In this document: positions 1 to 55,100 of the stretch, one piece after another
How the letters are laid out: every line of letters starts with the position of its first letter
Position numbering within the stretch: position 1 is the stretch's first letter
Origin: Raillietiella orientalis
Lineage: Eukaryota
Direction of reading: 5' to 3'
Assembly (NCBI GenBank): GCA_036172245.1
Contig: JAYWIR010000081.1
Span: 186,001 to 250,000 of the forward strand
Length of the DNA: 64,000 nucleotides
Position numbers and translations under genes: made by a program
Notes under the pieces: generated by a model
Databases searched by the model: none
The model's input: only the letters and a program-made list of their open reading frames with translations
What the model was told of the DNA's origin: nothing

Positions 1-403
1 TCGAGAGCGCGCATGACCTTCGAAAAGGCGCGCTTCTCTCTAAAGAATAGAGATTGCCTACCTTGTAGAACAATGAGGGGTTATACCCCTACTCAACATA
101 GGCCGACAATTCCGCCGCGGCTGCAGGCGATGGCGCCGACACAACGGCGCTCCACGCCCGTGCCGCAGCGGGGACCGATTCTGTGGGTCCGGATGCCCCA
201 CCTCCATCGCCAGTGGGGGCGAAGTTGCCGCCGCCCCCTGGCTCTCCATCGCCTCTGGAGGCGGCGTTGCCTCTGTCCCCTGGCCATCCCTGGTGGTCTC
301 GTCAGTCATCGCTTCCTGATCGACTACCGAACGACACGACGCTTGCACTGGGGGACACTTCCTGGCACGAGGAGCACCAAGAAAACACATCCACCCTGGA
401 GCA
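1..403 (-). mobile_element. LINE family A, 5' end and start of ORF1 (runs off window edge)
   Basis: Homologous to 18925-19320 (MTDETTRDGQG...EAMESQGAAATSP); 5' motif GGATGTGTTTTC; abuts host RT at the KAFD codons. Confidence 0.85.
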
Positions 404-1470
404 CGCAAGGCGGTCGACTTCGTGGACCAGGAGCTTTTGTTGGAGCTCCTGGGTCGCATGGGCTTCCCACCCTTCCTACTAACCTACCTTCGCTCTTGCT
501 GGCGCAACGCTATAATCAACGTCTCTTTCAGTAGTTAACAAGTGTACGGCGTGCCGGTGCGACGGGGCATCAGGCAGGGCGATAGCCTTAGTCCCCTGCT
601 CTTCAGCTCCTACTTCCAGTTTGTGCTGAGAGCATACAGGGTGACTTTGGCTGCTTTGCCGAGCTCGTGCCCCGGCACGCACGCCGTAGCGGCTTACGCC
701 GATGATCTTCTGCTCCTTTGGCCCATGTTCGCCCCGGTAACCGCAGTCGAGGACTTCTTCGACCTGTTAAGTCGTGGGACTGGACTACGGGTAAATAAGG
801 CAAGGTCATCGGTGGTAGCGGCTGGTGCGACGTGGGTCGGACGGCCTGACTGGATCCGTTTGTGGATCCCCATGGCGAGGTGCTTGAAGTTCCTTGGTGT
901 GCCGTTGGGGGACTATTCCCCTTAGGAAGCGTGGTCGGGACGTCTCCGGAAAGTAGAGTTGGAGATCGTCCCGTTCTTGGAAGACAGGTTTCTCCTTCCG
1001 GAACGGTCCGCGGTGTGAAACGCGTTCGCGGCTTCCATCCTCCAGCCCCTGCTTTTTGTTTGCCCCGTCCCGCTGCAGTTGACGAAACGGACGAAGGACC
1101 TGCAAATGATCGCCCTTTGGGGAAGAGGGAGGCCCTGACTCCCGTTGATGAACTTGTGTGCTCCGCGTCGGGATGGCGGTCTCGGTCTCTTGACGCTGGA
1201 GAGAGTGGAGTCTCAGCTGCGATTACGTACCCTGGCCATCGCAGCGAAGTTATGGAGCACCCCTAGGTGCATTCAGACCCGCCTTCTAGCCAGCCGTGTG
1301 TCCCGCTGCGATGGACTCGCATCTTTTCTTCTGCGCCCAGGCCAGAAGATAAGAAGATGCGGCCTACAGCTCGGGCGCGTGGCAACATTGGTCAAGGAGA
1401 ACGTCTGGATGGCATGCAGTTCCGCCAACTCCTCCGCATGGCTGGAATAATCTGTCTGAATTAAAGTCCC
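404..1470 (+). pseudogene. Degenerate LINE ORF2 fragment (RT domain, B/G-type), host of the family A insertion
   Basis: KAxDFVDQELL, RRGIRQGDSLSPLLF, AYADDLLL, LKFLGVPLG, APRRDGGLGL; in-frame stops. Confidence 0.9.
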
Positions 1471-5972: not shown

Positions 5973-5985
5973 AAAAGGGGGAGAC

Positions 5986-7751: not shown

Positions 7752-7870
7752 CCTGGCAGCTGGTCTTGCTGCACGGGATTACTGCAGGTCTTCCGCCGCG
7801 AACTCCTTGGCCCTTCTTTTGTAGTTTCTTCTGGAAACTTCCTTTCTCCGGGCGCACACGGGCACAATTA

Positions 7871-9366: not shown

Positions 9367-12300
9367 TTTTCACCCGGTTGCTCCGGGGCGTGTATTCTTT
9401 GGAATAAAACAAAGGTTGGCGGCTGACCAGGTGGTCCGTCCACGCACTGGTATACAAAATTAAGCCTGCCGGGTCAAGGGTTCGTATTCCGGCACGGTCC
9501 ATCACGACGGCAAAGGGCCCAAGGACAAAACCAAAAATAAAAGAAAAAACAAGAAATATATAAAATCAAGATCTGGGGGGCACGGGAAGGAATCACAGTC
9601 TGCTGGGGGGCCGTTACATCCTTTGCAGCATGCCGGCAAGCTGTTTTTGAATGTTTGAATCCAGATGGGTCTATTTTGTCGTCGTCCGCATAAAGTCGGC
9701 TGCGCACTGCACGCAATCTTATCGCGAGGTCCTCCCGTTGCTTTGCTTCATGCACCGACTATCCCGCGAAAGCAGCACAGAGCTGCTAACGCGGCCGAGG
9801 GCCGAAGGGCGTCGCAAACGAAGAGGGATCTCATTGCGTCTCTGGGGTTGCCACAGGGGTTACCGATTGCTGCGGCAAAACGGTTCTAAAGGGGCCGAAG
9901 AGCCACACAATCCAAGAGGAGGTGAGTGAGAGACTCTAGTTCTCCACACCTCGCACAATTAGGGTTCACCGCTCCCCGAATCCAATGGTGTCGACGGGCG
10001 TTGCAGGGGAGTCCCCAATGCAGCACCTATAGCGCCGACTCCTGCTATTTTAAAGGGAGGGTATAGGTGTTCATAAGCACCAGGGCCCACTTTTATTGTT
10101 CCCGCGGAACATTAAGCAGATCGCTTCAGCGCAAAAGTCCAATATGGGTGGTAGTCCGGGCCGCGGTATCGCAGAGATTTCCCGTTTTCCATTCCCCGAT
10201 GTTTTTCTCTGTACCGGAGATTTTGATGTCAACATCCCATTTCGCGGCAGTGTTGCTGTTTAAATGTTTTGCGGGCAGAAACAGCATTGCAGCGAGGGGA
10301 GTTTTTCTTGCACACGCTCGTTTTTGAGGGCTCTCCAGGACCTCTTGGAGCGTCAGTCGTTTATTTCGGGCGGAGAATTGTCTTTGCCCTTCTTGGGTGC
10401 GTTGCTGTGTGCTCCTTACCCACGTCTGAACCGTTTCCTGCACCCATGCAGGTCCGTTAACGGGACAACAGCAGAGCCATCCTGCGTGATTCCTCATCAG
10501 GTCAGCCACTCTCAGTAGCTGCAACCCGCAGTGACCGACTTGGCGGCGCCGACGGAGTGCAAGGAAGGATGACAGTCCCACCTTGCCTGTAGCCAGCTCG
10601 ACGAGGAGACGTGCGGGCTCGCACCAACTGCTACTCCAATATATCTCCACTAGGGCGAGTAACGGAAACTGGAGCTGGAGCTGCAGCCGCTCTAGCGTCA
10701 GGAGGCTCAGACCTCCGTGCCGACGCGGAGCGCTCATGTCCTCAAGCCTGCCTCGGGACCTCCCATAACCCACAGGGCAATCCTTACGAGGTCCTTCGTC
10801 CGCTTTTTAGTCTCTGTGGTAAGGGTACAAACAAAAAGCAGGGAACGAAGGAGGGGCGTTGCGAATGCGTTCTACACCGCTGCCCGTTCCGGCTGGAAAA
10901 ACCTGTGGCCTTGGAACGGGCCCAACGCCGTTTCTACCTTTTGAAGGCAGCTTGACCACGCATCCGAAGGGAGATAATCACCCATCGGTAAACCGAGGTA
11001 CTTGAAGTACCGTACCGTGGGAATCCCTAAACTGACCCAGTCCGGCTGCCCTGCCCAAGCCGCACCGATTGGCATGGCGGACAACTTCGCCCTGTTGACC
11101 TCAAGCCCGAATCCCCGACTTAGCAGGTCAAAGAACTCGACCGCCGATGCCGGGGTGGACATAGGAAGCAGCAGCAGTAGGTCGTCCGCATATGCTGACA
11201 CCGCGGGCGTACCGGGAAAGTCGCGCGGCAGGTGCGCTAGAGCTTTCCTGTACGCTCTCAGTACCAACTCGAAGTAGGTACTGAAGAGCAAGGGACTCAG
11301 GCTGTCTCCCTGCCGTATCCCGCGTCGCACCGGAACGCTGTGCACGGTGTGTCCACTGAAAAAGATCTTGATCAGCGCGTCGCGCCATTAGAATCGCAGG
11401 TAGGTCAGAAAAGAGACCGGGAAGCCCAAGCGTTCCAGGAGCTACTGGAGGAGCCTCTGGTCGACTCAGTCGAATGCTTTATGCAAATCGACTGCGACTG
11501 CGAGGGCTCCCTCCCCCCCCAAAAATCCCATTTCCTAGCGGTCTACCTTCCGGAAGTCCGGTTGCCCATCCTGACCGTTTTCTGCTGGAGCGCGAGAAAC
11601 ATGCTGGCGAGGAACAGGTTGGCATCCATGCTCCGCCCGGGAACAGCATATGTCTGCTCCGGGCTAATGAAGCTTTCCGCTTACCGCTCAAGCGTTCAGC
11701 CCACAATTTCGTTAGCAACTTGGAGTCCGCGTTCATCACGGTAATCGGCCGCCGGTTGCTCATGCTCTGAAGGTTTCCTTCCTTAGGGAGGAGACCCACC
11801 TTTGCCGAACGAAACCAGGCGGGGACATCGCCCGTTTCGGGGATCAGCAAGATGAGTTTCTTCATCAGAGTAGTGAGTTCTGCCGCAAAACATTGAAAAA
11901 TTTATGCTGGCAGGCCGTCCTACCCTGGAGCCATCCGCCTCTTGAGCTTTCCGATGGTCGAGATGATCTCGCCCATCGTAAAAGGCTCGTCAAGGGACTT
12001 TCTATCTTCCTCCCCGATCGCCTGAGGGTCTTCCGGAAGAAGAAGTCTCTAGAAATCCCGTTCCGGTGCAGAGCGCGCGTACAGGGAGGAGTAGAATTTT
12101 TTTAATAAGCCTTTTACCTGGGCGGGGGCCGATTGCTTTGAGCCCTGTTCGTCCAGTAAGCTAGCCGACCCGGATTGCCACGCCTGCCTCTCGGCTGTCG
12201 CACGGTATTCGGCTAGCCTGCGTACGTCTGGTGTTCGCACGTAACGTCGCGATTGTAAATACCATCTCTCGTTACGCACGCTTCCACCAAACCCGGCAGG

Positions 12301-14855
12301 CAGGAGGTTCATAGGTAACTGGTCGACCGAGCGCTTGAAGCGGTCCCAGTCCTGAAGCGTCAGCAAGCTGAAACCTCGTATGAATCCGCGGAGGTGCTCC
12401 GCGGCTTCTGCAAGTTTCAGCCAGTCCCCCGGTAAGCGCCACGCAGATGACGACGGACCTCTATCGCGTGGGCGCACCTCGAGTACGATCCGGTCATTGT
12501 TCGACAGTTCCCACGGTAACTTGCAGCGCCTGCCCACGCGTGAGCATAGGCGCTGGTCAAGAAACACGTGATCTATGCTGTCGGCCATTTCCGGATCTCC
12601 CGCGAGCAAGTTGCGCCTGTGCATCTCTGCGCACAGCTCGTTCACGCGGTCCCGAAGTGTGTCGGACGCACCTGACAGCAGGTGCAGGTTAAAGTCACCT
12701 GCGATTAGGTGCGCCTTGCGCACTCCCGCTTCGTCCAGATATTCGCGCCTCAGGGTAAGGAAGAAATTTCTCCTTGCCTTTGCCCTTAGCGCGTCGCGGC
12801 CGCTTGGGGCGTACACGTTGGTAATGACCAGATCGATGGAGTCGGACTACCTGATGGTCAACTGCCCGACGGGACCGGCACTATCGAACCGTACACCCTT
12901 TGCCGCAGCCTTGACAGCTGGACGAAGCAGGAACGCGACATCGCAAGTTTTAATGGTGCCGCAACGCCACAGCAGCCGCCCACCCGAGATACGCTCGATC
13001 TGCGTTGCTTGATCTGCGGAGATCAAGTATATCTCTTGCAGCAGCATCTGGTCTAACGATGCCAAGGTGTAGGCCACGTCTCGTCTCTTGCCGTCGTCGC
13101 CTAGCCCGTTGACGTTCCAAGAGGCCATTTGCAGACGGCGGTAAGAAGTCATTCCCGGCATTAAGGCTGGGAACGTGGCGTTGCAGCATCTGTCAGGGGA
13201 CAGGTGGGAGGGACGAGTAAGGGGACCGCGTCCATCTCAGGCACTTGAAGCACCTGGGGCACAGACTCTACCCTTTCCCTACCTCTCGAGGAGAGTCCCC
13301 GGAGTTCCCCACTTTATTCGCACGCTCGCTTCCCTCAATTATCTCTCCCTTTTCCACGGACGGGATTATTTTGCGGCTAGCCTTTTTCGTGCGAATGGCC
13401 TTTGGGCGGGAGACCGCAATGCCACAGGCTGTGTTTTCCGCCTCTGCGTCAGACTTCGGAATCTCCGACTTCTTGATCGAGGTCGGACGCCCTAAGGCCT
13501 TTTTCGTGGATTTAAGGGGACGCTGCAAGGACGCAACGAGCTCCTCCGCCGCTCGCTCGAAGGCGACGTAGTCGAGCATGCGTTCGACGACGGACCCCAC
13601 CGCCGGGTCGATAGCCTCCGGCATTAATTTGCCGGAGGGCTGAAAGTCGGCAGCGACGACTGCAATTTTGCCGCTCTTTTCGACCGCAGGAATGCGGTTC
13701 ATGACGACAGAGCAGCGTTTGATAATTTCTCGACGCATCAAATTCTCGCTGCGTTTGGCGACATTTTTTTTAGCTTCCTTGAGGCTTTTCTGCCTCTTGG
13801 ATTTTACTACCTGGTATTCAGGTTCCTGGCCGTTTTCCTCGACCTTGTCCGAGTTTTCCAAGATCTCGGAGCCTACCTTCACCTGGGGCACGATAGTTGT
13901 TTTTCGAGCGGCGGCTATCTCTCGCGCTGCCTGAACTTCGCCACGCGCTTCTTCGCATTCCGTGCGGACGCGACGCGGACTTCATTTTGCGGGCACACTG
14001 GAAGAGTGTGCCCGGGTTGCTTGCACTGCTTGCACTGCAAGTGGCGGCTTTTTTTTTTCAGGTGACCTGAAGTGCTGCAATGCCCTCAGAAATGCGGCTT
14101 ACCGACATACCAGATGTCAACGGGTTCGCCCTGGACCTCCAGCTTGTGTGGTAGGGAGCAACCCTCGCGGACCGTGATGCGCGCGGAAGCCATACCGCAA
14201 TTCATTAGATCGTACTCCCAATACGGAATCGGCCTTCTCCACAACGCGTGGACGGTTCCTAATTTAATGAATTCCTTTCGGACAGCTTCTTCGGCCATCC
14301 GAAGGTGATTTCGAGGAGGTGGATTACTATAGATCTATCCACGGTGATCGGGAGGAGCCGGCGATTTTCTAAAGGAACAGGTGTACGGAGCAGACGCAGG
14401 GCAAGACTTGCTTCTTTGCAAATCACCTCAACGTACTGTCCACCACTCCTGATGGTCATCGCCAAGAGCTCCTTCTGGGGTACTTTGAGGGACTGCATCG
14501 CTTTCGAGAAAGCGCGTTCACTCTCAAAGGAGTAGAGGTTGCCTACCTTGTAGAGTAGAGGAAGATTGTACTTCTCCTCCAGGTGGGCTTTCAATTCTGC
14601 CGCAACCGCTTGCGTTGACGCCGCAGCCACGGAACTCCAGCTTCTCCCTAGCGAGGGAGTCGCATCTGTGGGGCGGTTGCCCCCACATCCATTGATTTAG
14701 GAGGCGACATAGACGTCGTCCCATCCTTAACATTGGTGATGGTCCCAGGCATTGCTGCCTAGCCACCACCGAATCCGTTGGCACATTAAGAAAGAAAACA
14801 AAAAACTGAAACCAAAATCGCTCAAGAGCGAAACTAAAAGCCGTCGCTCTCGCTC
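9367..14855 (-). mobile_element. LINE family D, full-length (about 5.5 kb), degenerate, antisense inside family E
   Basis: ORF1 about 14760-13161 (YNLPLLYKVG, IWYVGKPHF); ORF2 13161-9593 (ASWNVNG, YAPSG, AGDFN, RQGDSLSP, YADD); 3' terminal motif at 9367-9396; host reading frame rejoins across it. Confidence 0.88.
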
Positions 14856-18360: not shown

Positions 18361-18935
18361 GATCGCCGTCTCGACTTTTTGGAGGCAGCCGCACCACGCT
18401 TCCGCTGCGGAAAAGTCCCCCAACGGCACACCAAGGTACTAAATGCACCTCGCAGTGGGGATCCCCAAACGGACCCAGTCCTGCTGCCCTGCCTACGCCG
18501 CACCAACTGGCACCACCGACGACTTCGCCCTGTTCACCTGCAGTCCGGTCCAGCGGCTGAGCAGGTCGAAGAAATCTCCGACCGCCTTCGCCGGGGAGGA
18601 CATAGGTAACAGGAGCAGAAGATCGTTGGCATAAACACTTACGGCGAGTGTGCCGCGGCATGAGCTCGGCAAGAGGGCCAAAGTCACCCTGTACGCTCTC
18701 AGCAATAACTCGAAGTAGGTGCTAAAGAGCAGGAGAACGAGGCTATCGCCCTGCCGCATGCCCCGCCCCACCGGCACGCCATACACCCGTTGACTGCTGG
18801 AAACGATCGAAATTATCGCGTTCCGCCAGCAGGAGCGCAGGTAGGAAATCAAGGAGGGTGGGAAGCCCATGCGACCCAGGAGCCCCAAGAGGAGTTCCTG
18901 GTCTACACAGTCGAACGCCTTGTGCGCTCCAGCGT

Positions 18936-18948
18936 GGACGTGTTTTCT
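18936..18948 (+). promoter_or_regulatory. Conserved 5' motif GGA(C/T)GTG(T/C)NTTT, DPE-like internal promoter element; representative copy
   Basis: Found within about 5-12 nt of element 5' ends at 392(-), about 17139, 18936, 29247(-), 31678(-), 36148, 43485, 49146 and 51448. Confidence 0.6.
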
Positions 18949-19018
18949 CGGTGCTCCTCGTGCCAGGAAGTCTCCCCCAGTGCAAGCGTCGTGTGGTTCG
19001 GTGGTCGATCAGGCAGCG

Positions 19019-20681
19019 ATGCCTGACGCGACCACCAGGGATGGCCAGGGGGCAGCGGCAACGCCGCCCTCAGAGGCGATGGAGAGCCAGGGGGCGGCGG
19101 CAACGTCGCCCCCAGAGGCGATGGAGGTGGGGGCATCCGCCCCCACAGAATCGGTCCCCGCTGCAGCGCGGGCGTGGAGCGCCGTTGTGTCGGCGCCATC
19201 GCCTGCAGCCACGGCGGAATTGTCGGCCTATGTAGAGAAGGGGTACAACCCCTCATTGTTTTACAAGGTAGGCAATTTATATTCTTTAGAGAGCGCGCGC
19301 GCCTTCTCGAAGGGCATGCGCGCTCTCGATGTGAAAGAGGAGGAGCTCAGCGCTATGACCATCCGCAGCGGGGGTCAGTACGTTGAGGTCATCTGCAAAC
19401 ATGCAGAGCTGGCCCAACGACTGCTTAAAACCCCCGTTGTGATGAAGACGCGCAGGCTTCTCCCCACTACGGCGGACCGCAGCATGGTGGTCCACCTGTT
19501 AGGCGTGACCGCGCGAAAGCGCAAAGAACAGGTTCGCGCCGCTTTGGAACAGTTTGGAACGGTCCACGCGCAGTGGCCGAAAGTTAGTCCTTATGAGGAC
19601 TACACGGGGCTGCAACACGGCCTCACTGCTGCGCGCGTGACCGTTCGGGAGGGCTGCACTCTTCCCCACAAACTGGTGGTCGAAGGCGAAACCGTCGACC
19701 TCTGGTATGTGGGGAAGCCGAAATATCTGTGGCTTCTGCAATACGTCGGGCCACCTTAAAAAGAGGTGTCCCAATGTGCAGTGCCAAGTATGCGGCACAA
19801 TGGGTCACACGAGGGAGGTGTGCCCAAAAGCAGCAGTGCGGGTGGTTTCCAAGAGAAACCTTAAAAAACGCGCCCGGCTTCTGCAGAAAAGACTGGCGGC
19901 GCTAGCTGCCGCGAAGGCTGTGCCACCCGCGCCCAAAACCCAGGCCGCACTCGAGACCCCGGCGACCAACGCCGAAAAAGTTGAGGGAGCCGGCCAGGAG
20001 ACTGAGTGGCAAGTGGCCACAGCCAAAAAATCAAAGAAGGAGAGGAGGATGGAAAAGAAAATCGCCTACCAACAGAAGAAGAAAGAGCAGGGTAGCGCGA
20101 TAATTAAAGAGTGCAGCGTCGTTGTCGAACGCGTTCTCGATGTTGCCGAACGCTGCCGGAATGAACTCGCCGCTACCGACGACCTCCCCTCTGTTGACAC
20201 AGTCAACAGCGAGGGGAGCGAGCCGGCGGCGGCGTCCGTCATCGACAACACCATCGATGACGTAGCCTTCGCGCGAGCCGCGGAGGAGCTGGCAGCCTCG
20301 TTGCAGCCAGAACCCTCCAAGGCTGGCAAGAAGGCCGTAAGGCGTCCGGCCTTCCCTCAGGAGTACCCCACTTCCGACCCCGAGGTGGAGGCCGGAAGCG
20401 CAGCCTCCGTATCAACGGCACCGCGCAAGAAGGCTGGACGTAAGTCCAGAAAGCCAAGGAAGCTCGTCTCCCCCGTCGAAGGGGAAGAGATGGCTTCCGC
20501 AAGCGAGGGTGCCATGAGCGTGGGAAACTTTCGGGACCCGTCGCAACAGAGACTCCCACCCACGGACACGGAGGGGATGGAGGGGGTGGAGGCCGAACAG
20601 GTGCCTCAGGTGCCTGAGAAGGCCGGAACCCCCATGGACATCCCGCCCGCCTCGCAAGAAGAGGGCTCCTTCACACCTTAA
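19019..20681 (+). pseudogene. Family A ORF1 gag-like nucleic-acid-binding protein (one frameshift near 19725)
   Basis: ORFs 18869..19759 and 19707..20681; CGFCNTSGHLKKRC and CQVCGTMGHTREVC knuckles; 42-bp duplication at about 19045-19125. Confidence 0.88.
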
Positions 20682-20695
20682 TCTTCCCAGCAGTA

Positions 20696-23600
20696 ATGCC
20701 GGGAGTCTCCTCCCGCCGTCGTCTGCGCATCGCCGTTTGGAACGTGAACGGCATCACAGACGCCGGCAGGAGACGAGACATGGCCGCCCTTCTGGAGTCC
20801 TACGACCTTGCGCTGCTGCAGGAGATCCACGTGATCTCTGCAGAACAAGCGCAAGAGATCGAACGGATCTCCGGAGGGCGGCTGTGGTACAGGTGTGGGA
20901 GAGCGAAAAGTTGCGGTGTCGCCTACCTGTTTCGGCCAGCCGTCGAGGCCGCGGATCGGGGCGTGCGGTTCGACGATCACGGTCGTGTCGGCCAGCTGAC
21001 TCTCAGGTGGTCCGACTCGATCGATCTGATCGTCACGAACGTGTACGCACCGAGCGGCAAAGACCTGATGAACAGGAGGGCGAGGAAAGAGTTTTTCCTT
21101 GCCCTCCGGCGAGACTGGCTGACCGAAGCAGGCGTGCGGAATGCCCATCTGGTTGCAGGCGATTTCAACGTTCGCCTGAAACCAGATGAGCAGAATCCCG
21201 AGCGTGACCTGTTCAACGAGGTGTGCATGGCGGTGCACACCTGTAATCTGTTGGCCAGTGCACCGGGGATGGAAGACAGCATTGACCACGTGTTTCTTGA
21301 CGAGCACCTGTGCCGTCGCGTGGACAGGCGCGGCAAGTTACCGTGCGAGCTGTCCGACCATCGCCCGCAAGTCCTCGAAATCCATCCGCGCGACAGGGGC
21401 CCCCCCCTCGTCAGCGTGGCGTCTCCCAGGGGACTGGCTGAAGCTCCCGGACGCAGCGGAAGATCTCCGCACATTCATACGGAGCTTCAGTTTGCGGACA
21501 CTCCATGATTGGGACCGCTTCAAGCGGTCGGTCCAGGAGTTCTGCGACCAGTTTCCTCTGCACCGCCTACCTACGGGTTTTGGGACCGGGATCCGTAACG
21601 AACGAGCCTACCTGCAGGCCCGTCGTTACGCAAGGACCCCCGACATCCGCAGGCTGGCGGATTACAAAGCGGGAGCCGAGAGGCAAGCCTGGCATTCCGG
21701 ATCGGCCAGCTTACTGGACGATCAGGGCCAGGAGCACTCGGCACCTGCCCAAATCCGCGGCCTGCTGCGGAGTTACTACTCCTCCCTGTATGCCAGGGCA
21801 CCTCCGGAGAGGAACGTCTCACGACTCCTGCTTCCGGAAGGCGCTCCGGCGATCGGGGAGGAGCAGAGAAAGACCCTCGACGAGCCTTTCACGATGGACG
21901 AGATCCTCTCGGCCATCGGAAAGCTCAAGAGGCGAAAGGCTCCAGGGGAGGACGGCCTGCCCGCGGAGTTTTATCAAACTTTCGCGGCTGAGCTTACCAC
22001 CCTGGTACAGCAACTCACCTTGCTGATACGCGAAACAGGTGACGTTCCCGCCTCGTTCCGTTCGGCAAAGATGCGGCTCCTCCCTAAGGGAGGAGATCTG
22101 AGGAGCATGAACAACTGGCGTCCCATCACAATAGTGAATGCGGACGCCAAGTTGGTAGCCAAGGTTTGAGGAGAGCGTCTGGGACGGGTTGCCAACATCT
22201 TCATCAGCCCGGAACAGACATATGCTGTTCCCGGGCGAAGCATGGAGGCGAACCTGTTCCACGCTTCCACCTGGCTTGAGCTCCAACATGAAAGGAGCTT
22301 GGTGCGCAGCCGGAATTCCGGTGCGTGCGCCGGCAAGGGGTTGGATGGTCGGGTGGGGGAGGGAGCCCTTGCGGTCGCAATCGACTTGCAGAAAGCATTC
22401 GATTGCGTCGACCAGAATCTCCTTCTGGAGCTTCTGGAACGCTTGGGCTTCCCGGCCTCATTAGTGGCCTATCTGCGCTCCTGCTGACGCGACGCGCTCA
22501 TAAATGTTACTTTCAGCGGGCAGACGGTGAACGGCGTGCCGGTGCGGCGTGGGATCCGGCTGGAAGACAGCCTGAGCCCCTTGCTCTTCAGTTCCTACTT
22601 TGAGTTTGTACTGAGAGCGTACAGGGGAACTCTGGCGCACCTGCCGCACGACTGTGCCGGTACGCCGGCCGTTTCAGCATACGCGGACGACCTTCTGCTG
22701 CTGCTCTCTATGTCCACCCCGGCTGCGGCGGTCGAGGAGTTCTTCGACCTGCTGCATCGGGGAACCGGACTTACGGTGAACAGGGCGAAGTCGTCCGTGA
22801 TGCCAGTTTGTGCGGCGTGGGCAGGGCAGCAGGACTGGGTCGGTTTGAGGATCCCCACGGTGAGGTACTTCAAGTACCTTGGTGTGCCGTTGGGGGACTA
22901 CTCCCCTGCGGAAGCGTGGTCCGGCTGCCTTCAAAAAGTAGAGACGGCGATCGGCCCGTTCCGAGGCGGCAGGTTTTTCCTGCCTGAACGGGAGCGGTTT
23001 GGAACACGTTCGCGGCTCCTCTCCTCCGCCCCCTGCTTTTTGTTTGCCTTCCCACAGAGAGGATTAAAAAGCAGACAAAGGACCTCCTCCGTATCGCCCT
23101 TTGGGGCAACGGGAGGGCCCGAGTCCGCTTAAAAAACTTGTGCGCTCCTCGTCGGGATGGTGGTCTGGGCCTCCTGACGCTGGAGCGGCTGGAGCTTCAG
23201 CTCCAGTTCCGCTTGCCGGCACTCGTTCCAGAGTTGTGGTGCACCTGTTGGTGCGTCCCTGCACGTCTCGTTCTCCAGCAAGCCACCGGCAAGACGGGAC
23301 TGACGTCGTTTCTTGCACTCCGTCGCCGCGTCAACCGATGCGGACTCCAGCTACGGAGGGTGGCTGCGCTGTATCGGAAAAACCCAGGATTGCTCACCTG
23401 TCTTCCCTTTAACGGTAGTGCCTGGTTGCAGGAAACCGTTCGAACGTGGGGACGGTTCGGCATGCAGCGCTCCCAACAGGAACGAAGGTTCCTGTTTGGG
23501 GGTTACAGAAGTTGCACGCTTCGCGAGATCCTGGAGGATCCAAAGAAGAGAGCGTGGGCAGGAAGAACCCCCCTCGCTGCTGCGCTTCCCTCCCTGATTG

Positions 23601-24276
23601 AAGATCTTGACAGCGATGTTGCGGCGAAGTGGGTGGTTACAGTAACAATCTCGGGAAAGGAGAAGAAGATAGGAGAGTGGAAGACGGGGAAGTTAACAGA
23701 CGCTGCCACCCCGAGTACGCCTCCACATGGACTTCTTTGCTGGGACGCGCTGCACGATGTCCCATTGAACATCTGAAGTGGCCCCCGGTGCTCATGAACA
23801 CTTCCGCTTTCCCCTTAAAATGGCAGGAGTCGGCTCTCCTGTTGCAAAACTTGGGATTCCCCTGCAACGCCCGCCGACACCACTGGACCTGGGGAGCGGT
23901 GGACCCCAATTGCGTCAGGTGTGGGGAACGCGAGTCCCTCCCCCACCTGCTAGTGGATTGTGTTGCCCTTCGGCCCCTTTGGTTTCGCTTTGCCGTGGCC
24001 ATCGGAATCCCCTGCGGCAACCCCAGGGACGCACTGAAAGCCCTCTTCGTTGCCGACGCCCTTCGGCCAGCGGCCTCGTTAGCAGCTTTGTGCTGCCTAC
24101 GCGGGATCGTCACCGCTTGAAGCAAGGCTACGGGAGGACAACGCGACCAGGGTGCCATCCAGCCAGCCTCCCAGTTCCTGAGGAGGGCGTCCCGATGGCC
24201 CCACCTGGATCCAGGAATGCAGAAAGAGTTTGCCGGCATCCTGCAAAGGATGCAACGGCCCCACCAGCAACTGTGA
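20696..24276 (+). pseudogene. Family A ORF2: APE endonuclease, reverse transcriptase and C-terminal Cys/His finger, disrupted
   Basis: WNVNG, LQEIH, NVYAP, AGDFN, SIDH, LSDH; KAPGEDG, NWRPIT, KAFD, YADD, KYLG; CVRCGERESLPHLLVDC; several stops and frameshifts. Confidence 0.92.
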
Positions 24277-24463
24277 TCCCTTCCGTTACCCTCCCAACTT
24301 TTCTTTTGTTTTTTGTTTTGTTTTTTGTTTTTCCCCCTTCTCCCTGCTGCCGTGGTGGACCGTACCGGTCTGCGAATCGGTGACCCGGCAGGCTCTGTGT
24401 TTCTGCGTGCGTGGCTGGAGCAATGGTCCAGCCACCGCACGTCTTTGTAGATGTTTATTTTAC

Positions 24464-24494
24464 AATAAACGCCCCGGCGAAATCCGGGTGAAAA
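24464..24494 (+). terminator. Shared LINE 3'-terminal motif (poly(A) signal, GC hairpin, short A tail); representative of 12 copies
   Basis: AATAAACGCCCCGGCGAAATCCGGGTGAAAA; other copies on + at 27359, 34599, 49095, 54427, 57798 and on - at 9367, 16101, 25747, 37311, 40491, 58373. Confidence 0.8.
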
Positions 24495-26129
24495 TCGAAC
24501 GCCTTATGGAGATCGACTGCGGTCGCTAGGGCTCCCTTCCCCGCCCCGAGTTCCTTTCCCAGCCCCGCTGGCGGCCCCAATGTTGGGTTGCCGATTTTCC
24601 CTTTCCCTTTCTTCTCTCTTCTCCTAGAATGCATCCACGTGCTTGCGAAGAAGAGGTTGGCGTCCATACATCGCCCGGGAACAGCATAGGTCTGCTCCGG
24701 GCTAATTGTGGACTCTGCCACCTGCCCCAAACGCGAAGCCCGTAGCCCTGCTAGCAACTTGGCGTCCGTATTCACGATGGTGATCGGACGAAAGTTGCTC
24801 AATTACCTGAGGTCTCCCTCTTTCGGGAGGAGCCTCACTCTGGATGAACGAAAAGAGGCGGGAACATCGCCTTCGTCTCGGATCAGCCTTGTCAACACGA
24901 GCACCACGGGGGCCAGATCTTGCGCGGAGCACAGAAAGAACTCCGCGGGCAAGCAATCCTCTCCTGGCGCCTTAAGCCTCTTGATCCTTTTGATACCGGC
25001 GAGAAATTCGCAGAGAGTGAAAGGCTTGTCGAGGCTTACCGACTCCTCTTCCCCTATTGCGAGGGCACCATCCGGGAGCAAGCGCCAAGAGGCATCTTAG
25101 TCCGAAGGCGTCGTGGCTTAGAGGGATGAATAAAATCTCCGCAGGAGATGTTGTTATGACGCCGGAAACGAACATTCCCGGCCCTGATCGTACAGCAAGC
25201 TGGCCGACCCGGATTGCTAGGCTTGGCGTTCGGTCCCAGCGCGGTACTCGGCCAAGCGACGCACATTAGCTGTTCTCTCGTAACGACGGTCCTGTAAATA
25301 GGCTCTATGGTTGTGAGGACCCTCGCGAAATCCGGGGGGCGGGCGATCCAGGGGGAACTGCTCGCAGAACTCCCGGACCGAGGCCTCAAAAAGGACCCAA
25401 TCCGAGAGACGCTGGAGCGTGACGCCTCTCAGAAATTTGCAAAGGTGTTCCTTCGCACCTTAGAGTCGCGTCCAGTCCCCCGGCAGACGCCAATATCTGG
25501 ATGGCGGTCTTTTGTCGCGAGGCCGCATCTCGAAAACTAACCGGACATGGTTCAAAAACCTCGACGCAACCCTCCTTCGTTTGCCGAACCGTGAAAACAC
25601 GTGAACGTCGAGGTAGACGTGGTCGATGCTGCGGATTATTCCCTTCTCACCCGCGAACAAGTTGCGCGCACGCATGGCGGCGCTGAACTCGTTCATCGCG
25701 TTCTCTTGTGTTTCAGGCTCACCTGTTAGCAGGCGGAGATTAAAATTTATTACCCGGTCACGCCGGGGCGTTTATTAATAATAATAAACTGGTCATGGAC
25801 AAAGTCCTCAACAACAGAACGTCACGGAACATAGAAAAATTCTCGGCACGCAGGCCTGGTAAACAAACCGCTCGCAGCGTGGGAGGAATGAGGGGAAACA
25901 AACAAAAATCAAAAACTGGAGGGACGGGTAACGGGTTTTTGGTTAGGCTCCGTACTCAAGGGAATTTATACGATGAGCACCTGAAATGTTCCGCAGCCTA
26001 TGGGGACGCTGGTGTGGAAAGAAAATACAAAATTAGTTTATGGAGGGAAGGGCAATGATCACCGGGCTGGCCGCTGCTGAGCGTGTGTCAACCGGCGGTG
26101 TATTGCGGCGAGATTCCTTTTTTTCTCCT

Positions 26130-34627: not shown

Positions 34628-36136
34628 CTTACCCGTGTCCAGTGATGACGGCGTGAATTGCAGGGCAGTCCATAGTGCAACAGCAGCAGCGCCTAATCCT
34701 GCCATTTTAGGGGGAGGATTCTGGTTTCTGTTATTACTGGGGGCCACTTGAGCTCATCAGTCATGATGCCGAGCAGCTCGCCCCATTTTTTGAGTCCTTG
34801 CGGAAGGACGCTATGTTGAGGCGTCCACAAGCTGTCGCACTGTCCAACCGCTCTTTAGGTTTTCGCTGCCTACGATACGATAAGAGACTTGCCACCTCGG
34901 CGTCCGGCTGCTCACGATTGTCCTACGTAGGAAGGGTAGCACCGTCGCCAGGCAAGTCGCCTCTTCCCACGTGCTTCTGGCGGGACACTTCACGATCTCG
35001 CGTAGAGTGCAGCGGGCGTATCGGCCGCGTCGCAGGCTAGTCCATGTCACGTAACTCATCTTATTCACTACAGCCCACGTGCCAACTGTTTCATTCAGCC
35101 ATGCGCTGGAGTTGACGGGGCGGCAGATCATCCAAGCATTCTCCCTCGCCATGGTGGCTACTTGTCCCAGCAGATGTCCGAATCTTCTTGTCTTCCTTCC
35201 ACGACATTAAAGAAGCGATGCGAGTCCTTCCGTTCCGGATACACGTGTGGCGAGTGAGGGACAGGGAGCACACCAGGGAGTGCTCCACATCTTGGCTGCG
35301 ATCGCCAAGGATCGCAATCGCAGCTGAATTTCCATGCGCTCCAGCATCAGGAGGCCTAGTTCACCATCACGACGCGGAGAGCACAAGTATATCAAAGGGA
35401 CTCGGGGCCTCCCCTTGCCCTAAAGGGCGATGCGCAGGAGGTCGTTGGTCCTCTTTTTTAATTCTTTGAGGACGGGGCAAACAAAAAGTAGGGGGCGAAG
35501 GATGGGAGCCCCTAAAGCGTTCCATACTGCGGCCCGTTCCGGCAAGTAAAACTTGCCGTTTAGGAACGGGCGAATCGCCAAATCCACCTTCTGAAGATCG
35601 CCTGACCATGCTTCTGACGGGCAGTAGTCCTCTAGAGGAACGCCAAGGTACTTCAGATGTGTGTCAGTCGGGATCCCCAGGCGGATCCAGTCAGGCCGTC
35701 CTACCCACGTCGCTCCAGCTGTCAACATCGACGAAATTGCTCTGTTGACCCGTAGCCCTGTCCCAAGGCTTAGCAAGTCGGAGAAATATTCGACTGCGGT
35801 TGCAGGGGAGGAAATTGGGAGCAGTAGCAGGAGATCGTCGGCATATGCAGCCACGGCAGGCGTACCGGGACATGAGCTTGGCAAGGCAGCCAAAGTCATC
35901 CTGTATGCTCTCAGCACCAACTTCAAATAGGTGATAAAGTGGAGGGGACTGAGGCTATCGCCCTTTTGAATCCCGCGGCGCACCGGCACGCAGTACACGC
36001 TCTGCCCTCTCAAAGATATGTTTGTTAACGCGGCTCATCAGCAGGAGCGCAGGTACGCCGTTAATGTAGGAGGGAAGCCCATACGATGCAGAAGCTCCAG
36101 CAGGAGCTCCTGGTCCACGCAGTCGAACTCCTTTTG
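34628..36136 (-). pseudogene. LINE ORF2 fragment (KAFD to HWTR), bounded by an A insertion and a G insertion
   Basis: ORF 35420..36013 (QKGDSLSP, AYADD, KYLG); LHYGLPCNSRRHHWTRV at the left end. Confidence 0.85.
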
Positions 36137-37310
36137 TGCTCCAGGGTGGATGTGTTTTCTCGGTGCTCCTCGTGCCAGGAAGTCTCCCCCAGTGCAAGCG
36201 TCGTGTGGTTCGGTGGTTGCTCAGGCAGCGATGGCTGACGCGACCATTAGGGATGGCCAGTGTGCAGCGGCAACGCCGCCCCCAGAGGCGATGGACAGCC
36301 AGGGGGCGGCGGCAACGTCGCTCCCAGAGGCGATGAAGATCGGTCCCCGCTGCAGCGCGGGCGTGAAGCGCCGTTGTGTCGGCGACATCGCCTGCAGCCG
36401 CGGCAGAATTGTCGGCCTATGTAGAGGAGGGGTACAACCTTTCATTGTTCTACAAGGTAGGCAATCTATATTCTTTAAAGAGCGCGCTCGCCTTCTCGAA
36501 GAGCATGCGCGCTTTCGATGTGAAGGAGGAGGAGCTCAGCGCTATGACCATCCGCAGCAGGGGTCAGTACGTTGAGGTCATCTGCAAACAAGCAGAGCTG
36601 GCCCAACGACTGCTTAAAACCCCCGTGGTGATCGAAACGCGCAGGCTCCTCTTTATTACGACGGACCGCAGCATGGTGGTCCACCTGTTAGGTGTTACCG
36701 CGCGGATGAGCAAGAAACAGGTTCGCGCCGCGTTGGAGCAATACGGAACGGTCCACGCGCAGTGGACGAAAGTTAGTCCTTGCGAAAAATACACGGAGCT
36801 GCAACACGGCCTCACGGCTGCGCGCGTGACCGTTCGGGAGGGCTGCACTCTTCCCCACAAACTGGTGGTCTTAGGCGAAACCGTCGACCTCTGGTATGTG
36901 GGGAAGACGAAATACTGCGGCTTCTGCAATACGTCAGGCCACCTCAAAAAGAGGTGTCCCAACGTGCAGTGCCAAATATGCGGCACAATGGGTCACACGA
37001 GGGAGGTGTGCCAAAAAGCAGCAGTGTGGGTGGTTTTCAAGAGAAGCTTTAAAAAACGCGCCAGGCTGCTGCAAAAGAAGCTGGCGGCGAAAGCTGCCTA
37101 GAAGGCTGTTCCACCCGCACCCAAGGCCCAGGCTGCACCCGCGACCCCGGCGAACAACGCCTAACAAGTCGAGGGAACAAGCCAGGAGCCTAAGTGGCAG
37201 GCGGCAACAGCCATGAAAACAAAAAAAGGACGAAGATCAAAAAAAAAGCTCGCGTACCGCCAGAAAAAACAGCAGACAAGATAGCAAGTGAAACAATGCA
37301 GCGTTATCGT
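36137..37310 (+). mobile_element. LINE family A, 5' end plus ORF1 N-terminal two-thirds, interrupted by family I
   Basis: ORF 36376..37101 closely matches ORF1 at 19019-20681; same junction in host KAFD. Confidence 0.88.
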
Positions 37311-39750
37311 TTATTACCCTATTGCGCCGGGACGTTTATTCATAATATCAACTGGGAACTGTGTTCCCAGGCAAGGGGAACAGAAAATGTGGAGTAGATT
37401 TCCTGGAACGCAGGCCGGGTTCACTGAGATTTCGGACGGGAGGGGGTGGGATAGGAAATAAATAAATTGGGTGGGAGGGCGGGGATAGTGATATACAGTG
37501 TAGCCTTTCCTATTCTCAAAACCAACAATGAATGCCGCCGATCTCTGTCCTCACTTCTGCTCCCAGGAGTGGCCACCCGGCAGCCATTTGCAGGTTGCAG
37601 GCTGCGGTGTCGGGGACCGATGTTGGGACGGCTCGCATCTGCGATACGTGGCAAGCCCTGACAATGGCGCGGACGCAGCAGATGATTGCGACGACCGCTC
37701 CAAGAGAAAGACCGCCACGCGTGTAGAAGTGTCGCATCCAATCGAGTGCGGTGTATCCGGGTTGCAAGAGCGCTAAAGACAGCCGCCGCCACAGATCCTG
37801 GAGGGCACCGCACTCAAACAGCAAATACGGAAGCGATTCCACCGCTCCGCATTTGGCACAGTTCGGAGACGCAACTCTTCCGGAAATCAGGTGCACCCGC
37901 TGGTTGCAGTAGAAACCCCAATGCAGCAGTAGAAAAGCGTCCTGCTTTCACCGAAGGGGGAAAAGAGTCATGTGCAAACACGCAGAAGGGACCACAAGTT
38001 CATCGGTGGGCACCCCGAGGAGCTCACTCCACCGGAGTAGTCCCTTGGCACGAAGGCGAGATGTGGCAGCGTCTGCCACTTCGAGACTCCGCCAGCCGCC
38101 CAGCAGAAGGATTTCGCCCGCGATTTTGCAACTGATCTCCAACCTCGCCGGCAGGTCACTGTCATCTCACACCATCAGTGCACACAGTGCTTCGGCTAGT
38201 GGCGTAGCAACTAGGCGTGTCCACTGGTCCTGGTGTTCCAGCACTCCCCCCACTGGACAGTATGAAGAAAGTTTCACGCAACGGAGTACCAAACGGGACA
38301 CATCCTGTTGCGCTGCCCAGGACGATAAGGCTTCCTGCCTCCAGGCGTTGAAGTTCGTCGGCCGGCAAGAGATCCACTCGTGCTTTCCCAGAAGCGTGGG
38401 GAGCTGCTGCAAAGGGAAGCCGAATCCTCTCTGGGCGCGCTCCCTGCGCAGATGCAAGGAACGTAGTCCTCCGCCAGCCGTTCAGCGCCGCAGCAGCAGC
38501 CGCGCTGGAGCACACCAAAGAGTAGTCCAGAGCTGCGCACAAAGTGCCAGCATGCGGAACTGCACTAGCAGTCCGATCCGCTCCAGCGTCAGGATGCCCA
38601 ATCCTGCATCCAGCCGAGGAGCCGCCAAGTCCTCTAGGCGTATCCAGGAACTCGCCAGTCCCCACAGGGCGTTCCGCAACAGGCATGCGCTCGGCGCTTC
38701 CTCGAGAAGCGAGGAATACAAACAACAAAGAGGGGACGGAGGAGATGGGCAACGAAAATCTTCCACACGAACGCCCGTTCCTTTAGGAGAATCCTGACGC
38801 CCCATGGAATGGGCCCGGAGCCGTCTCGGCCTTATGAAGGCAGTCCGACCACGCTTCTGATGGATAGAAGGCGCACAAGGGAACGCCGAAGTACTTGAAC
38901 CACCTGCCCGTAGGGATCTACATGCGGATCCAGTCGGACTGCCCCTCTTACGTAGAGCCAACCGGTACAACGGTTGATTTCGTCCTGTTGACGCTCAGGC
39001 CCGCTCCCCGACGAATGAGGTCAAGGAAGTCCTCGAGCCTGGACGCCGGGGTGGACATGGTCAGCAACAGGAGAAGGTCGTCAGCATAGGCGCCACGGCC
39101 GGTGTTCCCGGGCAGTAGCTCGGCAGGTTGGCGGACGTCAGCCTGTACGCCCTCAGCACCAACTCAAAGAAGATGTTGAAGAGCAGAAGGCTTGAGCTGT
39201 CTTCCTGCCTGATACCTTGCCGTAAGGGTATGCCGTACACGTTGCGCCCACTGAAAGAGATACAGCATGACGGGTGGCGCCAGCAGGAGCACAAGTAGGC
39301 GATGAGGTTCGTCGGGAGGCCAAAGCGTCCCATAAGCTCCCGAAAAAGGTCCTGGTTTACGCTGTCGAACGCTTTGCAGTGATCGACGGCGACCGCTAAG
39401 GCTCCCGGCGTTCCATCGTGCCTTGAACACCGCCGCTTACCTTTGGCAGCGCCGATTTCGGCTGCCTGGCTCTGCTACGCCACGCACTGCTGCAACTCGA
39501 ACCATGTTTGCGCGAAGAAGAGATTCGCGTCCATGGACCGCCCCGGAACAGCATACGTCTGCTCCGAACTTAGTAACGACTCCGCGATTCTCATAAGGCG
39601 CGCGACCCATAGCTTGGAGAACAACTTCACGTCCGAACTCATCATGGTGATCGGACGCCAGTTGCTAAGGTGGCGCAAATCACCGCCTTTCGGCAGGAGC
39701 TGGACCTTTGCTGAGCGGAAAGAAGCGGGAACATCTCCCGTCTCACGCAT
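37311..39750 (-). mobile_element. LINE family I, RT to 3' end, degenerate
   Basis: MRETGDVPASF, NWRPIT, RQEDSSS, CAKCGAVESLPYL; 3' motif 37311-37340. Confidence 0.83.
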
Positions 39751-49125: not shown

Positions 49126-49140
49126 CGCCGAATCCCTTGG

Positions 49141-52100: not shown

Positions 52101-55100
52101 GCTTACAATGCCGGACCGCCGTCTGCTGCCCACCAAACTACAGGTTGAAGACACGGTCGTTCACCTGTATTTCGTGGGCAAAGTTAGAACGTGCGAGCAA
52201 TGCGGAAAGGAGGGGCATTGTTTGGATAAATGCCCCTTTGGAAAATACTGTGATTGCAAACTAGCCGGGCACCAATTGAAAAATTGCCCGGATGCTTTGG
52301 GAAAAAAGGCAGCCGCGGAACTCCATGTTAACAAACAAAGCGCGGATAAAAAGAAAAAATCTTCGAAAAACCTGGAGACGTCGCGGCAGAAATTGCGCAA
52401 AAACGCAAAGCGGAATGTCGCCCCAAAGCAGCAGGAAACCACTCACGCGAAGCCCTGCGCGCTTCCTCTCGCGGCAGGGGAGCCGCAAAAGAAAGAGTGC
52501 GGGGAATCCGGGGCAATGGTAAGTCCCCCTAGGCGCAATAGCTGTCCTTCCCAAGCACGCCGGGCTCTCTCGGAGTTCGAGCAACCGGCGGGGACGCCAA
52601 TGGACAACGGCGGTAAGGACACTTCCAGTACCGTCAGATCCATTCCTTCACCTTCTGCAAAGGCTGAGAAGCCTATATTGGGTAAGAAGAGTTGTGCCGT
52701 GTCGACTTCGAAAGTCGGCAAAAAAAAATCTGCGTCGCGATCCAACACCGCGTAAGCGGAGAAAAATCACACGCCGTCGCAATCGGAGAGCAAGCTCTCG
52801 ACTGGCGCGGATGCCATGCCAACGAAGGGATTAAAAGCCCTTCCGAAGGCAGCGTCCATGACGAGCGTGTCGAAGTCATCCAAAGTGCTCACGTCCAAAG
52901 ACGCGGATGGCTTCAAAGATGGCAATGCAGCACAATCTCCATTTACGGCGCCACGCGAAGTGAGGAACCGTAATGAAGTAAAGAAGACTTCAGCATAGGT
53001 CCCTCGTGCAACTGCGCGTGAGCACGCTGAAAACCTGGCTTTGCTGCGCCCAACTTGCAATAGGGGAGGAGGAGATGGAAAGCCTCTACGAGCCTTTTAC
53101 CACCGTTGAAATTCTCGCCGGTATCAAAAGGCTCAAGAGGCGTAAAGCTCCAGGGGAAGACGGCTTGCCCGCGGAGTTCTTTCAGAGCTTCGCGGAAGAG
53201 CTGGAACCCCTGCTGCTTAAGTTGATCAGGCTGATCTGAGACGAAGGCGATGTTCCAGCCTCGTTTCGGTCAGCCAGAGTGAGTCTCCTTTCGTAAGGGG
53301 GAGACCTGAGGGATCTAAAGAACTGGCGTCCGATCACGATAGTAAATACGGACGCCAAGTTCATCGCAGGGCTATGGACTTCGCGTCTGGGGCAGGTGGC
53401 AGAATCCGTAATTAGCCCGGAGCAGACTTATGCTGTTCCCGGGCGAAGTATGGATGCCAACCTCTTCTTCGCAAGCACATGGGTGCACCTGCAGAGAAGA
53501 GAAAAGAAAGGGATAGGGAAAGTCGGCAACCCCACATTGGGGCCGCCAGCCGGGCTGGGAAGGGACCCCCGGGCGGGGCAGGGGGCCCTAGCGCTCGCAG
53601 TCGATCTCCACAAGGCGTTCGACTGTGTAGACCAGGAACTCCTCTTGGAGCTCCTGGGTCGCATGGGCTTCCCACCCTCCCTGATTTCCTACCTGCGCTC
53701 TTGCTGGCGGAATAGGACGATAACCGTCTCTTTCAGTGGACAGAAGGTGTATGGCGTGCCGATGCGGCGGGGCATAAGGCAGGGCGATAGCCTCAGCCCT
53801 CTGCTCTTTAACACCTACTTTGAGTTGGTGCTCAGAGCGTACAGGGTGACTTTGGTCCCCTTGCTTAGCTCGTGCCCCGGCACGCCCGCCGTAGCAGCGT
53901 ACGCCGACGATCTTCTGCTCTTGTTGCTAATTTCCACCCCGTCAAACGCGGTCGGAGACTTCTTCGATCTGCTCAGCAGCGGGACCGGACTCAGCGGGAC
54001 TGCTCAGCACCAAGAGGTGATCGGCAAAGCATCTTCCTATATGGAAGGAGCCGCCAGATGGCCTCAATTGACCGAGGATACGAAAAGGGATCTCGCTAGC
54101 ATACGCCGACGGTTTACAGACGCTACCCAACAGCGCACCCGGTGATCCTTACCCCTCGCCCCCTTGATATGTTTTTTTTTTTTTTTTACTTCCGCCCTAT
54201 TAGGCTCCGAAACATTTTAAGTGCTCTCTATTTGAATCCCCGTGAGTACGGAGCTTCACCAAGGACCGGTTACCCCTCTCTCCAGATTTAGATTTTTGTT
54301 TGTTATCCCTCTACACCCTCAGTGTTGTTGGAAGCGGTTTGTTCACCAGGCCTGTGCGCCAATAAATTCTCTGTGCTCCTTGTCGTTTTTTTGGTTACAG
54401 ACATGGTCTTTGACCGGCTTATTTTCAATAAACGTCCAGGCGTGACCTCGTGAATAATTTCAATCTCCGCCTGCTAACAGGTGAGCCAGCAACACAAGAG
54501 AACGCGATGATCGAGTTGTGCGCCGCCATGCGTGCGCGCAACTTGTTCGCGGGTAAGAGGGGAATGGTCCGCAGCATCGACCACGTCTTCGTCGACGCTG
54601 ACCTGTGTTCACGGGTCGGCAAACGGGAGAGGGTTGCGTCGACGTTGTCGGACCATTCCCGGTTAATGTTCGAGATGCGGCCTCGCGACAAAGGACCGCC
54701 ATCCAGAAATTGGCGTCTGCCGGGGGACTGGACGCGACTATCAGGTGCGAAGGAACACCTTCGCGAATACCTGAGAGGCGTCACGCTCCGGAATCTCCAG
54801 GACTGCGACCTTTTTAAGGAATCGGTCCGCGAGTTCTGTGAGCAGTTCCCCCTGGATCGCCTGCCCCCCGGATTCGGCGAGGGTGCTCGCAACCATCGGG
54901 CCTATTTACAGGCTCGTAGGTACGAGTAAACCCCTAATGTTCGTCGCCTGGCCGAGTACCGCGCCGTGGCCGAACGCCAAGCCTGGCAATCCGGGTCGGC
55001 CAGCTTGCTGGACGACCAGGGCCGGGAATGTTCGTCCCCGGCGTCGGTACGGCATCTCGTGCGGAGTTTTTATTCCTCCCTTTACGCCAGGGAGCCCCCG

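Follow-up and report, generated by a model that had tools for sequence, protein, structure and literature searches.

Long interspersed elements (LINEs) with site-specific insertion are known to target ribosomal DNA (rDNA), telomeres, small-RNA genes, microsatellites and, in the case of Tx1, a DNA transposon. Passages in the literature place the sequence-specific LINEs that carry an apurinic-type (APE) endonuclease in the Tx1 and R1 clades (PMC4640811). Tx1 is described as an animal clade (PMC4494074) and inserts into the piggyBac-type DNA transposon Tx1D (PMC4494074; PMC6719617), and the endonuclease (EN) domain of R1 is described as cutting both strands of its target specifically (PMC1919474). 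Zepp and Zepp-like L1 elements are described as forming nested, LINE-only clusters 'that target existing copies', which are putative centromeres in green algae (PMC8226300; PMC3446292; PMC9940879; PMC11005252). Here we describe family A, a group of LINE copies in a 64-kb stretch of DNA from Raillietiella orientalis (assembly GCA_036172245.1, contig JAYWIR010000081.1, positions 186,001 to 250,000, hereafter the window), along the whole of which LINE-derived segments are found. Three copies, including the full-length A1, have been inserted independently and in antisense at one exact position in the reverse transcriptase (RT) codons of other LINEs. We think it probable that family A is an L1-like, APE-type LINE which inserts by sequence-specific target-primed reverse transcription (TPRT) into the H-K-A-F-D codons of RT motif A of related LINEs, always antisense. 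Judged by its sequence, family A appears Tx1- or R1-like in being sequence-specific and APE-based and Zepp-like in living inside LINEs, with a target that differs from both.

A1 is flanked by 14-bp repeats, TCGAACGCCTTGTG on the left (18911-18924) and TCGAACGCCTTATG on the right (24495-24508), which differ by one G>A change. In a repeat search they form direct-repeat family D7, with a spacing of 5584, and no terminal repeat of greater length was found; therefore A1 is not a long terminal repeat (LTR) element. When A1 and one repeat are removed, the sequence ...AVDLHKAFDCVDQELL of a minus-strand LINE, host H1, is restored. The minus-strand frame to the right of A1 (24495-24802) ends at the junction in ATAVDLHKAFD and the frame to the left (18493-18924) opens with HKAFDCVDQELLLGLL; as the two join across the flanks, the host frame is recovered when A1 and one repeat are taken out. 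Uninterrupted paralogs at three places (53609-53622, 47022-47035 and 55698-55711) align across the junction with a single 14-mer each, that at 53609-53622 being identical to the target in H1.

The 14 bp of the target site duplication (TSD) are the antisense of the host codons for H-K-A-F plus two further bases, which belong to the second Asp codon. By alignment through the protein relative P0003 (see below), the Asp of AVD corresponds to residue 600 of human L1 ORF2p and the Asp of KAFD to residue 606. Residue 600 we take to be the catalytic Asp of motif A. Its codon lies two codons upstream of, and outside, the TSD, which qualifies the original prediction that the target encodes the motif with a catalytic Asp: the codons are those of RT motif A, with the AVD Asp just beyond the duplicated bases. 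An inverted repeat derived from the two Asp codons of the motif, CAGTCGA...TCGACTG, brackets the target (18905-18935 with 24495-24520; 53595-53640).

The same junction is found at two further places. The 5' junction of A1 reads ...AGTCGAACGCCTTGTG followed by CGCTCCAGCGTGGACGTG; that of A2, in element orientation (417->403), reads ...AGTCGACCGCCTTGCG followed by TGCTCCAGGGTGGATGTG, and that of A3 (36123->36137) ...AGTCGAACTCCTTTTG followed by TGCTCCAGGGTGGATGTG. The target of A2 is TCGACCGCCTTGCG on the minus-strand reading of 404-417, with the element starting at 403, and the target of A3 (36123-36136) is TCGAACTCCTTTTG, with the element starting at 36137. All three elements begin with the same 11 bases and then a GGAYGTGTTT box, all three visible 5' ends are complete, and orientation relative to the host is antisense in every event. 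The window holds four copies with 84% or more identity to A1 (A1 itself, A2, A3 and A4), and all four of their visible termini, three 5' and one 3', lie at the site. An IUPAC pattern of the 14-mer, allowing one mismatch, matched six times in the window where 0.06 matches were expected, and none of 100 shuffled sequences reached six. The original prediction of a full-length copy with a 14-bp TSD at 18911..24508, whose excision restores the host and whose 5' junction recurs at 404-417 (-) and 36123-36136 (+) in diverged hosts, is therefore borne out by the repeats as read, by the rejoined frames and by the empty paralogs, and the antisense insertion falls at one exact position in the HKAFD codons of three separately diverged hosts.

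The three insertions are independent, because the hosts have diverged more than the inserts and because the nearest relatives of H1 and H2 are empty. Over 564 nt of RT after the target the hosts are 77.7, 71.1 and 73.2% identical (Kimura two-parameter distances, K2P, of 0.27, 0.37 and 0.34). For the A copies, identity is 92.0, 92.9 and 89.2% across the first ~400 nt, with K2P of 0.075-0.119 across the A comparisons, and A1 and A3 are 89.1% identical over 1132 nt. A BLAST comparison of hosts and A copies gave the same pattern as the pairwise distances. The nearest relatives of H1 are the empty copies C3 (85.5%) and C4 (82.6%), and the nearest relative of H2 is again C3 (79.4%). The chance that two further random insertions would fall at the same base and in the same orientation, counting both strands of a LINE of about 5.5 kb, is of the order of 1e-8.

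Thirteen RT copies in the window retain the site, as found by tblastn with a host peptide starting at HKAFD. Three of these are occupied, all by family A, and ten are empty; one more RT copy has lost the target region by deletion. Because the target encodes a conserved motif, it stays alike in LINE families with only 71-78% identity to each other, and one specificity would therefore serve many hosts. Most differences among the 13 copies are at wobble positions (GCG/GCA/GCT, AAG/AAA, GAC/GAT), and in some the His codon is replaced. Escape by mutation is thus possible, which weakens the original proposal that mutation of the site is hardly open to the host. Its further claim, that the host is inactivated, stands as far as the insertion splits ORF2 (the second open reading frame, ORF) of the host; the remainder was the proposal's own inference. 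The corresponding site in A1 itself, TCGAATGCTTTCTG, differs from the H1 target at 3 of 14 positions, and that of the sister lineage B is TCGAATGCTTTATG. Empty sites with 0-2 differences are common. The codons of family A do therefore differ from the target, as had been asked, but this difference is no sign of self-immunity, as ten of the 13 sites are unoccupied in any case and one of these matches the H1 target exactly.

A1 has the order expected of an APE-type LINE, with the endonuclease (PF03372) N-terminal to the RT (PF00078). It has no terminal repeats, it has a TSD, and its 3' end is a hairpin followed by GAAAA with no long poly(A). ORF1 had no Pfam match; two CX2CX4HX4C (CCHC) knuckles were identified in it by eye. 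The RT motif of A1 itself is IDLQKAFDCVDQ, at ~22374-22409. Among PDB structures the best retrotransposon match to the endonuclease is human L1 EN (E 2e-06 to 1e-05), ranking below bacterial and archaeal exonuclease III. A1 is a dead copy: ORF1 lies in two frames and ORF2 in at least four frame pieces, with in-frame TGA at 22167 and 22485. A variant genetic code with TGA as a sense codon was ruled out, as relatives carry CGA and TGG at these positions and A1 is also frameshifted. A 42-bp tandem duplication is present in the part of ORF1 coding for its N-terminus in all three copies (19039-19122, 202-284 and 36256-36335).

The 3' end of A1 has counterparts throughout the window. The arrangement AATAAA(C)GCCCCGG, variable loop, CCGGGTG and short A-rich tail is common to 10 of 10 aligned 3' ends, in which the stem is kept in sequence and the loops differ by family. 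None of the five pairs of the hairpin showed a compensatory change. This common box may be an element recognised by the RT. At the other end, a GGACGTG box about 11 nt inside the 5' ends is common to families A, C and E.

The lineage of family A is isolated in sequence space. A protein word-index search with the 623-aa ORF2 piece gave two matches among longer proteins and three of similar length, with only P0003 (JGI) close, at 64%. P0003 is an uninterrupted relative of 619 aa and matches L1 ORF2p (1e-39) far better than R2 (7e-17). With P0003 as query, a HMMER search of 1.84 billion proteins returned 328 at E <= 1e-30. Identity drops to 34% at the next full-length representative, itself a repetitive gene model; P0011, at 70%, is a fragment of 132 aa. 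A metagenome scan with P0003 gave seven loci, each a distant RT matched at 22-35% identity or over a motif of 28 residues, with no family-A relative and no junction among them.

How could a LINE find these codons? Taking the junctions with the standard TPRT model, the endonuclease would nick the host coding strand between ...GCGTTCGA and CTGTG.... The 3'-OH at ...GCGTTCGA would then prime cDNA synthesis from the 3' box of the element (AATAAA, CCCGG/CCGGG stem, GTGAAAA tail), and a second cut on the other strand, 14 bp away between ...CCTTGTG and GAGATCGAC, would give rise to the 14-bp duplication. The outcome would be full-length copies, every hit splitting ORF2 of a host and sparing non-LINE sequence. 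By analogy with R1 and Tx1, we infer that the target sequence is read by the APE domain and not by the RNA or some other region of the protein.

An alternative that we regard as unlikely is RNA-guided homing, in which transcripts reading through into the TCGAACGCC... flank would carry a 3' extension that pairs with the nicked target and sets where reverse transcription starts. Annealing of a 3' extension has been proposed for some rDNA- and telomere-specific LINEs. The target sequence follows every correctly inserted copy of family A, therefore a read-through RNA would include it, and, with a GAAAA tail that is unable to pair with the ...TTCGA primer, there is room for guidance by RNA. The description of cotranscription with the target as able to strengthen target-specific integration (PMC4494074) also counts in its favour. 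However, a nick at the precise base is needed before any pairing can act, and the sister lineage B, which is inserted elsewhere, has a target-like 3' flank without descent from a copy at the site, which fits recognition of DNA at the nick.

B lies antisense in another host, about 900 bp upstream, between the codons for ...REF and ELVDWD, and has no TSD. Its 3' flank begins TCAAACTCCCTTATGG and resembles the target of family A. Allowing up to three edits on both strands (128,000 positions), 39 matches to the target were found, made up of 12 true sites, the B flank and about 26 background matches (~2e-4 per position). This resemblance points to the DNA sequence, and not the protein-coding context, as what would be read, and B looks like an off-target hit. 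B was also considered as a fourth insertion at the same codons; this was ruled out by the tblastn map and the translations, which place it upstream and without a TSD.

Sequence-specific TPRT by family A remains our preferred reading, and several points weigh against it. Only three events are available, all within one 64-kb window. Most of the target sites are empty, a perfect one among them, so targeting is not saturating. All copies are dead, so that any activity and the endonuclease specificity are predictions. Complementarity between the primer end ...TTCGA and the GAAAA tail is not evident, and the model gives no account of how priming is positioned. The zf-RVT match falls under its Pfam cut-off (24.8 against 27.5 bits). 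The likeness of family A to the L1 group is drawn from PDB and Pfam matches. Finally, a look for public sequencing runs gave one DNA run (X1; share of words 0.21) and no RNA run. Contigs from X1 were compared with 18361-25747 at 85% likeness. Of these, 296 short contigs matched, 31 of them at least 99% alike, and none of the matches listed had a joint that skips A1 or a loose end at either 18925 or 24494. The X1 contigs are short and do not resolve the junctions, and they are neutral on the insertion.

It is very improbable that a single A insertion was multiplied by segmental duplication, or by retrotransposition of host plus A, with the copies diverging afterwards. The window does hold possible old duplications, as the Host0/H3 and H4/H_B blocks align at 73.8% across their junction and the two E-plus-host blocks are 89% identical. 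Duplication predicts equal divergence, however, whereas divergence among the hosts is about threefold that among the A copies. The empty C3 and C4 also stand nearer to H1 than do the other occupied hosts (77.7 and 71.1%), and a single insertion would need precise loss of A from both of these empty copies.

The site is specific to family A and is not a general hot spot, because the other families in the nest end at other recurrent sites and never here. A structural hot spot, fragile or attractive to any LINE (for example through the inverted repeat, which brackets the target both in H1 and in the empty site at 53609) with family A merely the active family, can be all but set aside, as C, E, the Host0/H4 type, J, G, D and H5 end elsewhere, several of them recurrently, and the orientation is the same in three of three events.

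With Tx1L of Xenopus laevis and the Tx1 clade, family A shares an APE-type endonuclease, a likeness to the L1 group and strict sequence-specific insertion into a repeated target, a likeness by trait and not by tree. Unlike in the Tx1 clade, the target of family A is the protein-coding RT motif of autonomous sister LINEs, entered antisense, and not a non-autonomous DNA transposon, a small nuclear RNA (snRNA) gene or a microsatellite. R1/TRAS/SART and R2 are alike in being site-specific, with multicopy targets, precise junctions and full-length copies, but their targets are rDNA or telomeric repeats. R2 moreover uses a restriction-like endonuclease, whereas family A has an N-terminal APE domain.

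Zepp and Zepp-like elements resemble family A in their insertion into existing copies and in forming a LINE-only nested cluster, as is found in the window. Nested Zepp clusters are described as reaching 42 kb with a GC content above that of the genome (PMC3446292), and L1 clusters as forming centromeres in several green algae (PMC11005252). Zepp arrays are described as mostly 5'-truncated 3' ends (PMC8226300), and a poly(A) tail is tabulated for Zepp (PMC3747384). In contrast, family A has complete 5' ends in all three cases, its hairpin box carries just four As, and its antisense target is exact to the nucleotide; the passages of the Zepp literature compared give no exact Zepp target. In the open-access literature searched, no description was found of a LINE with the RT codons of other LINEs as its target.

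The nest around A1 contains further recurrent junctions (Table 1). No tRNA and no Rfam family were found in the window by tRNA and Rfam scans. H1 belongs to a C-type element, C2 (5' end at 31678), of which it forms the 3' part; C2 is also split by E1 at G-D-F-N codons. H1 stops abruptly at 18361 (A-coordinate 4028) against the ORF1 end of an opposite C-type copy (17140-18361), and this break looks like a rearrangement and not a clean insertion. Three 5' ends of family C, at 31678 (-), 43485 and 17140 (+), are antisense and fall in or close to the G-F-G codons located between EN and RT of other LINEs. C3 (43475-49125) is bracketed by CGCCGAAACC and CGCCGAATCC, and C4 follows head to tail from 49146 after a spacer (49126-49145), as would be expected if a duplicated target was hit again. 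A 20-bp TSD for C3 was dropped, as alignment with uninterrupted copies supports only ~10 bp as host-derived. The C copies and their hosts are about equally diverged.

The two E copies lie in sense orientation in the G-D-F-N endonuclease codons of two C-type hosts, with a 9-bp TSD, ATTTYAATC. Their host flanks show one mismatch in 53, and the two may be one event copied with its host. The 3' ends of Host0 and H4 (34628/34629 +; 16100/16099 -), with the 3' loop GCGTGA, both abut CTTMCCCGYGTCCAGTG, a sequence antisense to the H-W-T-R-G-A codons in the zf-RVT region of the hosts; the two blocks align straight across the junction, and an old duplication is possible. The 3' end of J, a minus-strand LINE, adjoins A4 at 58373/58374, which is A-coordinate 1935, and one X1 contig has a loose end at the same position of A1 (20859), with the antisense 3' end of a different element. 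A-coordinate 1935 may thus be a further recurrent target, in the EN-coding part of family A. These additional sites (C, E, Host0/H4 and J) are leads and not findings; for C, E and Host0/H4 this is because the divergence of host and insert, or the likeness of the flanks, permits copied events. The nest also holds an unrelated lineage, a distant minus-strand LINE at ~2662-8300 with ~30% amino acid identity to family A and the motif FTDVEKAFDSIDHG, in the stretch of lowest GC (50-55%).

Table 1. Coordinates of family A, its hosts and neighbouring elements in the 64-kb window.
Feature	Position	Strand	Remarks
Left TSD copy	18911..18924	.	antisense of host codons H-K-A-F-D (2 nt)
A1, full-length family-A non-LTR retrotransposon	18925..24494	+	5570 bp
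A1 ORF1	19019..20681	+	ATG at 19019; frameshift near 19650-19760
A1 APE endonuclease domain	20735..21361	+	PF03372, E 1.9e-14
A1 RT domain, approximate limits	21960..22890	+	PF00078, E 2.1e-07 on 22515-22889
A1 zf-RVT-like Cys/His region	23722..23982	+	PF13966, 24.8 bits, under the 27.5 cut-off
A1 3' box	24466..24494	+	AATAAA, 5-bp stem CCCGG/CCGGG, GTGAAAA tail
Right TSD copy	24495..24508	.	one G>A difference
A2, 5' 403 bp of second family-A copy	1..403	-	runs off the window
A3, 5' 1.2 kb of third family-A copy	36137..37311	+	cut by the 3' end of another minus-strand LINE
A4, internal family-A fragment	57826..58373	+	no terminus; A-coordinates 1387-1935; 84.8% identical to A1
Host H1, upstream of target	24509..25747	-	A-coordinates ~3464 back to 2237
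Host H1, downstream of target	18361..18910	-	RT motifs after KAFD; cut off at 18361
Host H2	404..1456	+	begins exactly at the target 14-mer (404-417)
Host H3	34636..36136	-	ends exactly at the target 14-mer (36123-36136)
Empty target site	53609..53622	-	14-mer identical to that of H1
Empty target site in C3	47022..47035	-	C3 is the closest relative of H1 (85.5% identical)
B, sister lineage of A	9367..14846	-	73% identical to A1; same GGGTGAAAA tail
Element E, copy E1	25747-29247	-	640-aa ORF1, little else
Element E, copy E2	51448-54452	+	640-aa ORF1, little else
Aligned element 3' ends	24494, 9367, 49125, 57828, 27388, 25747, 34628, 16100, 40492, 58372

A wider reading of the window can be offered tentatively. 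It is possible that this is a self-assembling LINE nest, perhaps a centromere-like L1 cluster, put together by at least four related L1-like lineages acting as a guild, each with a nucleotide-exact target in the conserved codons of the others. In such a guild, A would use the RT codons H-K-A-F-D (antisense, 14-bp TSD), C the G-F-G codons (antisense, TSD of at least 10 bp, with a tandem second copy), E the G-D-F-N codons (sense, 9-bp TSD) and the Host0/H4 type the H-W-T-R-G-A codons (antisense). If so, mutual targeting of catalytic or structural motifs would confine the elements to a safe haven and would let lineages disable their competitors.

For family A itself, sequence-specific insertion into the RT codons of related LINEs would, if true, be a clear case of a transposon that parasitises and disables its own relatives. 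For engineered targeted insertion, too, there would be interest in an APE endonuclease that is compact and has a long, defined recognition site. The same behaviour would provide a concrete mechanism, at the level of sequence, for the growth of LINE-only nested clusters.

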